Source of the DNA: Bdellovibrionales bacterium
GTDB lineage: Bacteria > Bdellovibrionota > UBA1018 > CAIMNF01
Direction: 5' to 3'
DNA: 64,000 nt
NCBI GenBank assembly: GCA_040380025.1
Contig: JBEIJY010000004.1
Location: 32,001 to 96,000, forward strand
Part shown: positions 1,286-3,334 of the stretch, piece by piece
Layout: each line of letters starts with the position of its first letter
How positions within the stretch are numbered: the stretch's first letter is position 1
The notes under the pieces: model-generated
Seen by the model: only the letters and a program-made list of their open reading frames with translations
What the model was told of the DNA's origin: nothing
Database searches by the model: none
Made by a program: the position numbers and the translations under genes

Positions 1286-1759
1286 ATGAAACAGTTTCTG
1301 ACCCTTTCCCTGACCCTGATCGCCGGCTTCGTTGTCGTTTCGTGCGGAAACAACCAGAACTGTCCCGCGGGACAAATCGCCCAAGGCAACACCTGCGTGG
1401 TGGCGACCGCGGGCGGATTCAACAATGGGTTCGCACAAAACGGTCCGAACGGATTTGGCAACCAATGCCCCTCGGGACAATTCCAGACCCAATACGGATG
1501 CCTGACCCAGGACACTTGCCCTCAAGGGCAGGCTTTTTTCCCTCAAAACAGGACCTGCGTGCCGATCATCCAGAATGGCGGAAACGGCGGGTATTACGGG
1601 GGGAATTACGGCGGATACTGGGGATACGGCGGTTACGGTGGATACGGCGGATTCAACTGCCCGGCGGGAATGGGCTTCAGCCGCTGGGTGAACAACTGCC
1701 TTCCGGTGGGTCCCTGCTCGTGGGGCTTGTACTTTTTTAACGGCTCATGCGTGCCTTAG
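1286..1759 (+). CDS. Cys-rich, Gly/Tyr/Asn-rich secreted lipoprotein
   Basis: Signal peptide with VVS-C lipobox; repeated CP[A/S/Q]G[Q/M] units and a GGY low-complexity tract; RBS GAGGT. Confidence 0.8.
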   Translation: MKQFLTLSLTLIAGFVVVSCGNNQNCPAGQIAQGNTCVVATAGGFNNGFAQNGPNGFGNQCPSGQFQTQYGCLTQDTCPQGQAFFPQNRTCVPIIQNGGNGGYYGGNYGGYWGYGGYGGYGGFNCPAGMGFSRWVNNCLPVGPCSWGLYFFNGSCVP

Positions 1760-1801
1760 GTCAAATTTTGCCTGCTTTGGGACGGAATGGGGAGTGCCAA
1801 C

Positions 1802-1829
1802 TTGACACGGCGCAAATAAGGCTAATCCT
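1802..1829 (+). promoter_or_regulatory. Putative promoter for the + strand structured RNA
   Basis: TTGACA at 1802-1807 followed by TAATCCT at 1823-1829, with no credible CDS downstream. Confidence 0.45.
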
Positions 1830-1834
1830 AACTC

Positions 1835-2084
1835 ATTGAAATTAAAGGAAATCAATAAACCAAGACTCTGGCATGAAGCGTGAAAAGGAAAGCACGTGAC
1901 CAGAGCGGCCCGGCAAAGTCCCGGAGCTCATCATGAAACTACCAGAACTCTCCGGGATCTCCCTGGGGCATGCGACCGGAGGTTTTAAGATGGCTCTTAA
2001 ACCACCGGGTAAACCCTTCCTTCTCTCCTTCAACAAGAGAGTCCAAAGCCAATTCCCCGCTTCGGGGCTTGGGCCGCCGGTCAC
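1835..2084 (+). ncRNA. Candidate structured ncRNA (multi-branched, about 190-250 nt)
   Basis: Long-range helix GTGACC..GCGGCCCGG (1896-1913) with TTGGGCCGC.GGTCAC (2069-2084) encloses hairpins 1919-1957, 1976-2008 and 2055-2067. G-U pairs favour the + strand. Confidence 0.5.
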
Positions 2085-2122
2085 AAAAATAAAAATCCCG
2101 GGAGGATTTCTCCCCCCGGGAT
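2085..2122 (-). terminator. Intrinsic terminator (minus strand)
   Basis: Minus strand reads ATCCCGGGGGGA-GAAA-TCCTCCCGGGAT followed by TTTTATTTTT. Confidence 0.8.
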
Positions 2123-2265
2123 CTCTGCAAAAGGGTCAAACCGATCATTCCTTCGATCAAGCTTTCGCTTCATCCATTCCATCGGACAGAACTCGACCGC
2201 AACCACACTTTGACAATTCTTGCTGTGTCGCCTCTTCCATGAAGCGGAATTATAAAACCGATTTG
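2085..2265 (-). ncRNA. Candidate rod-shaped small RNA, about 180 nt
   Basis: Bounded by a TTGACA-16-TACGAT promoter and a terminator. It has an 11-bp closing stem (2256-2266 with 2136-2146), an 8-bp inner stem (2239-2246 with 2166-2173) and four ANGGA motifs. Confidence 0.55.
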
Positions 2266-2270
2266 ATTTA

Positions 2271-2298
2271 ATCGTATCGAACCATTGAGCCCTGTCAA
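2271..2298 (-). promoter_or_regulatory. Sigma70-type promoter
   Basis: On the minus strand: TTGACA (2298-2293), 16-nt spacer, TACGAT (2276-2271). Confidence 0.7.
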
Positions 2299-2367
2299 CC
2301 GCGCGGATGAAAAAAAGAAAAAAAAGATACCCCGCTCCGCGTTCTTATATTTAGGATCAAAGATTCC

Positions 2368-3222
2368 ATGAACGCTGAAATCGCCGCCCTTTGGCCCGGA
2401 GCCTCGGAATCCCTTCTGAAAGCGCTCCACATCCTGACCCGCGAAGGAAAACTGAACGCGGACTCAAGAAGAAAGCTCAAACAAGTCCTGCACCTGACGC
2501 GACTGATCGAGCCGTTTTTGCAAACCACCCTGAAAAAACGCGGACGTTTGAACGTGGTCGATCTCGGAGCGGGAAAATCCTACTTGGGATTCATTCTGTA
2601 TGATCTGGTTTTGCGGGCCCTTCCGGAAGCATCCCTGATTGCGATCGAATCCCGCCCGGAACTGATCGAAGGGTCGAGAAAACTCGCCGAATCGGCCGGA
2701 TTCGAGCGAATGCGGTTTCTTGCCTCCGAGATCGAAGCGGTTTCGAGCAAGGACGAATCTGTCGATTTCGTGTGCACCCTGCATGCATGCGACACCGCGA
2801 CCGATGATGCCATTCTGTACGGTCTTGCGCGAAACACCCACGCCTTCGCACTGGTGCCCTGCTGTCAGGCCGAAGTGGCGCGGGAACTCGAACGCCTGAA
2901 GCGTCCGGCCCCGGGCGATGCCGCACTGGAATCGTTGTTTGCGTTTCCGATCCATCGGCGGGAGTTCGGGAGCCATTTGACGAATGTGATCCGAACGCTG
3001 TTTTTGAGCTCAAAAGGGTACCGGGTCACGGTCACCGAACTGGTGGGCTGGGAACATTCCATGAAAAACGAGCTGATTCTGGCCGAAAAGATCTCGGATG
3101 AGAATCATCCCGAGAGCCTGCGGGCCGGAGAGCGCCTCGCCGGACTGCTGATGCGATTCCCCGCGAAGATGAAATTGCTCGGAAGCTGGACTCGACCGGA
3201 AGTCCGTGATACATCCCTTTGA
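2368..3222 (+). CDS. Class I SAM-dependent methyltransferase (Methyltransf_32-like)
   Basis: VVDLGAGKSYLGF, LHACDTATDDA, VPCCQ and HSMKN motifs. Confidence 0.88.
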   Translation: MNAEIAALWPGASESLLKALHILTREGKLNADSRRKLKQVLHLTRLIEPFLQTTLKKRGRLNVVDLGAGKSYLGFILYDLVLRALPEASLIAIESRPELIEGSRKLAESAGFERMRFLASEIEAVSSKDESVDFVCTLHACDTATDDAILYGLARNTHAFALVPCCQAEVARELERLKRPAPGDAALESLFAFPIHRREFGSHLTNVIRTLFLSSKGYRVTVTELVGWEHSMKNELILAEKISDENHPESLRAGERLAGLLMRFPAKMKLLGSWTRPEVRDTSL

Positions 3223-3244: not shown

Positions 3245-3334
3245 GGAGGGGTGTCCGAGTGGTTGAAGGAGCACGCTTGGAAAGCGTGTAAAGGGTCACA
3301 CCTTTCGTGGGTTCGAATCCCATCCCCTCCTCCA
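3245..3334 (+). tRNA. tRNA-Ser (anticodon GGA)
   Basis: Acceptor stem GGAGGGG/CCCCTCC, anticodon arm CACGC-TTGGAAA-GCGTG, long variable arm, GTTCGAATC T-loop, encoded CCA. Confidence 0.97.

Follow-up and report, generated by a model that had tools for sequence, protein, structure and literature searches.

Among the stand-alone RNAs described in bacteria, GlmY comes closest in logic to the element considered here, a predicted structured RNA from an intergenic region of a Bdellovibrionales bacterium (assembly GCA_040380025.1). The whole 64-kb stretch of contig JBEIJY010000004.1 that was analyzed (G000:C4:32001-96000) is called the window, and G000 is the host genome (2.35 Mb assembled, 98% complete). 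GlmY works as a decoy for a protein and not by base pairing, with an upstream site for the activator GlrR being involved, and Salmonella YrlA and YrlB are encoded in a sigma-54/RtcR-controlled operon. According to passages of PMC3162934, expression of glmY is sigma-54-dependent. Like the element, GlmY and GlmZ of Enterobacteriaceae are stand-alone small RNA (sRNA) genes of ~150-200 nt; however, they share no similarity in sequence or structure with it, come from another phylum and consist of three stem-loops in a row, and the likeness in logic is one between a known promoter and a predicted one. In Bdellovibrio bacteriovorus, parts of PMC3627812 describe merRNA, a stand-alone riboswitch RNA of the cyclic di-GMP (c-di-GMP)-I class with no downstream open reading frame (ORF) to regulate. 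merRNA and the element are both structured, stand-alone RNAs of Bdellovibrio relatives with a lineage-restricted distribution, but merRNA has a recognizable c-di-GMP-I aptamer, whereas the element does not match that family. 6S RNA is similar in length (~185 nt) and has its ends joined in a long closing stem, but forms a rod with a central bubble and gave no covariance model (CM) match to the element. YrlA and YrlB are likewise structured noncoding RNAs (ncRNAs) that combine a multi-branched domain with a long terminal stem, but the element has no tRNA-like T-arm and its host has no TROVE/Rsr and RtcB genes. Orphan motifs from comparative genomics, such as raiA, are also defined by covariation and have complex multi-stem folds with pseudoknots; the element is not among the Rfam 15 families, and its range is narrower, with 13 examples in one genus. 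The element belongs to neither the GlmY nor the merRNA family and is best read as a new, previously undescribed ncRNA family of ~190 nt.

The first search, a BLAST comparison of window positions 1780-2300 with 41 related genomes, returned two independent conserved blocks, window 1793-2083 and window 2085-2298. The former, which holds the element, had matches in three genomes at 71-72% identity, and the close relatives of the window element are those of G002, G010, and G013. A CM built from the four close sequences (R1) added the more distant members G003, G012, and G006. A seven-sequence model (R2), run with filters off on loci adjoining sRNA2, a separate unit that converges on the element and is described below, added G009, G008, and G015, and the copy of G005 was detected by BLAST with the G008 copy as query. 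Among 80 metagenome loci retrieved via the neighboring methyltransferase, two carried the element: L045, found by CM, and L044, found first by nhmmer and later confirmed by CM. In total this gave 13 sequences, from 11 of the 17 genomes of one Bdellovibrionales genus and from the two metagenome loci. The element is single-copy in G000 by BLAST, CM, and nhmmer (next nhmmer match, E 1.6), and all 13 copies occupy the same slot in the same orientation relative to sRNA2 and the methyltransferase gene, the gene order being tatA, hpt, a lipoprotein gene in some, the element, inserted genes in some, sRNA2 on the opposite strand, and the methyltransferase gene. R2 gave no match in 99 other genomes of the order, a search whose strict filters also miss divergent members inside the genus, and the element is so far restricted to one genus of uncultured Bdellovibrionales. 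By search it is absent from G001, G004, G007, G011, G014, and G016 (77-98% complete); unrelated DNA lies beside sRNA2 in four of these six, and in G004 hpt directly abuts sRNA2. This incomplete presence within the genus makes the element a poor fit to an essential RNA. We rejected a protein-coding reading of the element: its two overlapping ORFs have no Pfam match, indels of 1, 1, 4, and 1 nt separate the close relatives, and no ORF of at least 70 aa spans it in G003, G012, G009, or G015. This bears out a first-pass annotation, made earlier from the window sequence, which had seen no credible coding sequence here.

The homologues share a fold that the first-pass annotation had partly drawn (Table 1). 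It is predicted to consist of a closing stem of ~25 bp (P1a, P1b, and P2), joining the 5' and 3' ends, and of a four-way junction bearing the variable hairpins H1 and H3 and the conserved hairpin H2, whose loop would form a 4-6 bp pseudoknot with a junction strand. The interrupted closing helix of that annotation corresponds to P1a and P1b and its three enclosed hairpins to H1, H2, and H3; all of these covary in the 13 homologues. RNAalifold returned P1a, P1b, the 12-bp P2, and three hairpins from a MAFFT alignment of the four close sequences, and in this alignment six variable pairs of P2 are kept via G-U on the plus strand. Across the 13 sequences, changes on both sides occur in 9 of the 13 pairs of P1 (93.8% of cells paired) and in 8 of the 12 pairs of P2, and 92.0% of the cells of H2 are paired. 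The two strands of the pseudoknot are complementary over at least 4 bp in 12 of 12 sequences examined: the H2 loop has the consensus (U/A)GGC(U/A), the GGC/GCC core is constant, and the flanks covary (UGGC/GCCA versus AGGC/GCCU, and GGCA/UGCU in G012). Furthermore, the junction strand is invariant in the four close sequences and recognizable in all 13, and, as read from the alignment, H1 bears a GNRA tetraloop in nine of the 13 homologues, the window not being among them. A hairpin CCCCGCTTCGGGG (2055-2067), suggested by the single sequence, is not a conserved pairing, and its 3' half belongs to P2.

Covariation is strong in all five helices. The proportion of paired cells was 96.2%, 93.6%, and 93.1% in alignments of seven, 12, and 13 sequences, compared to means of 81.8%, 75.0%, and 74.0% in shuffles and to 31-54%, 30-48%, and 30-47% with slid partners, and both sides had changed in 34, 39, and 41 of 51 pairs, respectively; these pair counts favor the structure of the model because the alignments were fitted to it. 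With 13 sequences, compensatory changes are found in each of the five helices and none of 500 shuffles reached the observed pairing, a count that overstates significance because the sequences are related. A structure-blind MAFFT alignment of eight sequences recovered parts of P1, P2, H2, and H3 (30 pairs, 14 of them compensatory). The element is almost certainly a real structured RNA and, if the fold is as drawn, its four-way junction and pseudoknot would give it a complexity comparable to that of a riboswitch or ribozyme. Covariation in every helix together with a supported pseudoknot is rare, and past cases have led to riboswitches, ribozymes, and ribonucleoprotein partners.

Table 1. Features of the element and of its surroundings, in window positions.
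Feature	Position	Strand	Details
Structured RNA core, ~189 nt	1896-2084	+	CM matches in 13 sequences; covariation
P1a, part of P1	1896-1901 with 2079-2084	+	G1896-C1901 : G2079-C2084
P1b, part of P1	1905-1911 with 2071-2077	+	G1905-C1911 : G2071-C2077
P2, 12 bp	1916-1927 (AAGTCCCGGAGC) with 2059-2070 (GCTTCGGGGCTT)	+	Continues the closing stem
3' strands of P2, P1b, and P1a	2059-2084	+	
Hairpin H1, variable sequence	1950-1968 (approximate)	+	Helix 3; 8/8 pairs changed on both sides
Hairpin H2, most conserved arm	1976-2008	+	Helix 4; loop A-TGGCT-C; 11/13 pairs changed on both sides
Hairpin H3, variable	2023-2041	+	Helix 5; 5/5 pairs changed on both sides; least reliable alignment
Predicted pseudoknot	1991-1995 (TGGCT, H2 loop) with 2047-2051 (AGCCA, junction strand)	+	Loop-junction complementarity
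Conserved junction strand AGCCAATTCCCC	2047-2058	+	3' half of the pseudoknot and unpaired C-rich run
Candidate sigma-54-type promoter	1870-1884	+	TGGCAT (-24 box), 5 nt, GTGAA (-12 block)
Dyad GTGCCA-ACT-TGACAC, candidate upstream activating sequence for a sigma-54 activator	1794-1808	+	Contains TTGACA (1802-1807)
sRNA2, separate unit converging on the element	2087-2298	-	Promoter-like site 2298-2271; terminator 2126-2091
Intergenic region	1760-2367		Between the lipoprotein-like gene (+) and the methyltransferase gene (+)
Lipoprotein-like secreted protein gene	1286-1759	+	Rich in G/N/Y/C (45-47% of residues); no Pfam match
Class I methyltransferase gene	2368-3222	+	Methyltransf_32

Comparison with known RNA families was made against Rfam 15. 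At the gathering threshold, a scan of the whole 64 kb gave tRNA-Ser (3245-3331) as its sole match, and a permissive scan (E<=10) of positions 1600-2450 gave five chance-level matches, none of them to 6S RNA, RNase P RNA, c-di-GMP-I/II, or another riboswitch family. The matches to NsiR1 (E 0.07), SdsR, and the His leader are driven by the minus-strand terminator of sRNA2 and were rejected. The earlier proposal of a stand-alone multi-branched RNA of no known family, distinct from the rod of 6S RNA, was thereby upheld. 6S RNA (RF00013) was rejected, as there was no CM match and the consensus fold has a four-way junction where 6S RNA forms an extended rod with a central asymmetric bubble; the canonical 6S RNA of G000 lies elsewhere (C15:19280-19459, 61.4 bits), as does its RNase P RNA (C19, 278 bits). 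RNase P RNA, transfer-messenger RNA (tmRNA), and signal recognition particle (SRP) RNA had no matches in the window and were rejected as well, the distribution of the element being patchy. Since neither RF00169 (small SRP RNA) nor RF00023 (tmRNA) had a convincing match anywhere in G000, where the tmRNA matches are tRNAs, these two are excluded by shape and distribution only; their genes may have escaped assembly, have diverged, or have been removed by the search filters. G000 has no match to Ro60/TROVE (PF05731), whose gene usually adjoins that of a Y RNA, or to RtcB (PF01139), which removes a Y-RNA reading. The element is undescribed in Rfam 15 and in the full-text literature searched, although subscription journals or supplements could hold a description.

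Upstream of the core a single block is invariant: TGGCA[CT] is found 18-29 nt 5' of the model start in 13 of 13 homologues, in DNA that is otherwise poorly conserved (58% mean column identity). Sigma-54 promoters have the consensus TGGCAC-N5-TTGC, with a -24 GG and a -12 GC element. The -12 block that follows TGGCAY after N5 reads xxGCA in five of the 13 and xTG(A/T)A in eight, including the window, and the usual -24/-12 numbering, which we take to apply, puts the predicted +1 at G1896, the first base of P1. Further upstream lies a dyad, GTGNCA-N3-TGNCAC, present with at most one mismatch in nine of the 13 homologues (TGACAC in 11). In those nine it lies 74-77 or 85-86 nt from TGGCAY, two spacings one helical turn apart and in keeping with an activator site ~70-150 bp upstream on a fixed face of the helix; it may well be the binding site of an activator. 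Within G000, this locus is the only one where the dyad is followed downstream by TGGCAY. The genome holds rpoN (Sigma54_DBD in a 501-aa open frame on C9), ~10 full-length enhancer-binding proteins (10 matches to Sigma54_activat, E<=1e-30), and eight canonical TGGCAC-N5-TTGC sites. Among the matches listed, activator number does not separate genomes with the element (7-21) from those without (10-12). We consider it probable that a sigma-54 promoter serves the element.

Taken as a whole, we lean moderately towards a gene model in which the element is a real, plus-strand, stand-alone structured RNA with a sigma-54-type promoter. A sigma-54 (-24/-12) promoter of the form TGGCAY-N5-xxGCA or xTGWA would set the start of RNA synthesis at the first P1 base, and a dedicated enhancer-binding protein would activate it from the dyad GTGNCA-N3-TGACAC, located 75 or 86 nt upstream. 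The RNA would be the output of one signaling pathway, comparable to GlmY or the Qrr RNAs, and would act in trans through its shape, by binding or sequestering a protein (or a small ligand) and not as a simple antisense RNA. Action by fold-dependent binding is proposed tentatively and with less confidence than the gene itself; it is favored over seed pairing because the helices, H2, and the pseudoknot are conserved whereas the unpaired junction sequences drift. More speculative still is the possibility that the element represents a new class of large, tertiary-structured ncRNA in Bdellovibrio-like bacteria, a stand-alone RNA that is the dedicated output of a sigma-54/enhancer-binding protein pathway and soaks up or senses a protein or small molecule instead of acting by antisense pairing. 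The invariant -24 box, a predicted start at the first paired base, and a helically phased dyad make for a testable hypothesis, and the element offers a compact entry to what a sigma-54 pathway controls in an uncultured lineage related to predatory bacteria. Its general reach is limited because the distribution is narrow, 13 examples in one genus, and the uncultured host limits experiments.

Several other explanations account for part of these data. The functional RNA could be the minus strand, which in the window has the lower single-sequence energy and z-score. However, the alignment of the four close sequences favors the plus strand (-74.2 versus -64.3 kcal/mol, with covariation terms of -2.31 versus -0.12), P2 is not predicted on its minus strand, one-sided changes in P2 stay paired on the plus strand only, and G-U cells outnumber A-C cells by 62 to 11. 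Moreover, a minus-strand element would directly follow the sRNA2 terminator, with no promoter-like site found between them by scan, and genes intervene in relatives. We regard a functional minus strand as very improbable and the plus strand as very probably the functional one. The G-U excess indicates selection on the plus-strand RNA and not on a DNA palindrome, and so also bears on the idea that the element is a palindromic DNA repeat, akin to the hairpin of a miniature inverted-repeat transposable element, whose complementarity is kept by DNA copying and not by selection on RNA. Good folding of the window core on either strand speaks for this idea, but the element is single-copy in G000 and sits at an orthologous, syntenic position in 13 loci, and its internal hairpins and pseudoknot are not palindromic, which leaves the repeat as the least credible of the explanations. 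A stand-alone c-di-GMP-binding RNA like merRNA was suggested by a loose motif resemblance to c-di-GMP-I junctions, pointed out in the first-pass annotation, and by the existence of such an RNA in Bdellovibrio, reported in parts of PMC3627812. This resemblance did not hold up: neither c-di-GMP-I/-II nor any other riboswitch model matched the element at E<=10, whereas the same c-di-GMP-I model (RF01051, gathering score 35 bits) finds a genuine riboswitch elsewhere in G000 (C13:26774-26871) at 62.5 bits, and the architecture of the element is a four-way junction with a pseudoknot. We consider a c-di-GMP-binding RNA extremely unlikely.

Three further alternatives concern where the transcript begins and how it acts. 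The first-pass annotation had placed a promoter at TTGACA and proposed a switch; in that scheme a sigma-70 promoter would give a transcript of ~250 nt from about 1836, in which the closing helix and the leader sequence CTCTGGCATG (1866-1875) compete for pairing. The hexamer is indeed present on the plus strand, and the window sequence allows a strong alternative stem, 1866-1875 with 1895-1905, whose -14.7 kcal/mol is reached by only 1% of shuffles and which the minimum free energy (MFE) fold uses when the leader is included. However, no acceptable -10 element for TTGACA passed the promoter scan, and the hexamer is the right half of the dyad. The alternative stem is not conserved, reaching -6.5 to -7.0 kcal/mol in G002, G010, and G013, no better than shuffles, and being unremarkable in most other homologues; TGGCAY does not covary when P1a changes, as with the P1a GCGAG/CUCGC of G003; and the stretch that separates the dyad from TGGCAY shows little conservation and varies in length. 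A sigma-70 leader with a switch thus appears very unlikely, and the 5' arm of the alternative stem, which is the TGGCAY box, would make more sense as a sigma-54 -24 element than as a strand of the transcript. Alternatively, the element could belong to the transcript of the upstream operon (tatA-hpt, with the lipoprotein gene in the window), either as a structure in its 3' untranslated region or as an RNA processed from its 3' end. The upstream gene is on the strand of the element in the homologous loci examined, and in the window the 5' edge of the conserved block is only 35 nt past its stop codon, but the nearest upstream gene differs among homologues (lipoprotein gene, hpt, or tatA), the gap reaches ~300 nt in G003, and the invariant TGGCAY box, at a set distance from P1, and the dyad upstream of it look promoter-like; we find this origin quite unlikely. 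The remaining alternative keeps the same gene but makes its RNA a base-pairing regulator, in which unpaired C/U-rich stretches (CUCCCCUCUCC, found at the P2/H1 junction of close relatives, and AAUUCCCC, preceding the P2 3' strand) pair with the ribosome-binding sites of target mRNAs. The alignment does show unpaired C-rich runs, and base pairing is the mode of action of most known sigma-54-dependent sRNAs, the Qrr RNAs among them. However, the family has no conserved sequence at the P2/H1 junction, which is different in the window, in G006, and in the G008 group, and the conserved H2, pseudoknot, and helices are unusual for seed-type sRNAs. A pairing regulator is therefore unlikely, though the most plausible of these alternatives. 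With respect to the first-pass annotation, the observation is partly confirmed and its interpretation partly supported.

Besides the way in which pair and shuffle counts flatter the model, a number of points weigh against a plus-strand sigma-54 gene of this fold. Strand, ends, and promoter are all deduced from sequence. Scores of the four most divergent members are no higher than 22.7-26.7 bits, and their alignment around H3 is poor. The window core beats its shuffles on the plus strand (z -3.84, 0 of 200 shuffles as good), but its minus strand does so by no less (z -4.33), and the MFE fold of the window, which prefers local hairpins, is 6.3 kcal/mol more stable than the conserved fold, the pseudoknot being uncounted; because both strands beat shuffles and the MFE differs, the single window sequence cannot decide fold or strand. 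Eight of the 13 promoters are without the canonical C at -12 (xTGWA versus TTGCW), and in a regulon search of G000 the dyad defined no wider regulon. An intrinsic plus-strand terminator lies within 130 nt past the element in four of the 13 copies (G003, G012, G008, and G005), but a scan found no clear one in the other nine, including the window, where the sole hairpin past P1 (2097-2121) carries a minus-strand U-tract and serves as the sRNA2 terminator. Finally, the neighborhood offers no functional hint, since the flanking genes vary.

Two other promoter-like arrangements near the element were considered and rejected. TAAAG ... GCCGCAAA, upstream of the element in close relatives, recalls a FliA (sigma-28) promoter, but its spacing is 19 nt and the window has no -35 part; the attack-phase FliA consensus of Bdellovibrio is given in part of PMC3627812 as TTAAG-N16-CCGATA. 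A minus-strand sigma-54 site within the dyad (TGGCAC, TCCCC, ATTC) lacks conservation in its -12 part. As a separate observation, a sigma-54-like site, TGGCACGCTCCCTGCTTT, lies at ~23000 (+) of G000:C9, directly 3' of the rpoN frame, and a 309-aa ORF follows it at a distance of 51 nt.

The second conserved block of the BLAST search corresponds to sRNA2, which has a sigma-70-like promoter, TTGACA-16-TACGAT, and matches by BLAST in 15 of the 16 other genomes of the genus, hence in 16 of 17 when G000 is included. It has an invariant core, AAGTGTGGTTGCGGTCGAG ... CTTGATCGA.GGA.TGATCGGTTTGACCC, and a covarying terminator stem, and showed neither an Rfam match nor a conserved ORF, an apparent 'KCGCGR' peptide having no conserved start or frame. 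sRNA2 is not part of the element because other genes separate the two in six homologous loci. A possible pairing between sRNA2 and the element (GGUUUGACCC with GGGUAAACC) was rejected, as it does not covary in G013 or G002.

The genes around the element differ from genome to genome. The G/N/Y/C-rich lipoprotein gene is upstream of it only in the four closest genomes, and a functional link to that gene was rejected on this ground; because the upstream gene varies, the element is not tied to it. Links to the downstream genes, namely the esterase, the Zn-ribbon gene, and the reverse-transcriptase cluster of G012, were rejected since these vary between genomes, and the element is not cis-regulatory because downstream genes are absent, variable, or on the other strand. 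In G013 the esterase gene starts ~40 nt downstream of the element and could be co-transcribed with it. The gap between the element and sRNA2 is itself an insertion hotspot (window 2085-2090; L019:1791-2753; L124:570-4860): it is empty in the window, G006, G009, G008, and G015, in G002, G010, and G013 holds a BD-FAE esterase gene, alone or together with a Zn-ribbon gene, and in G012 contains a three-gene cluster with a reverse transcriptase (RVT_1).

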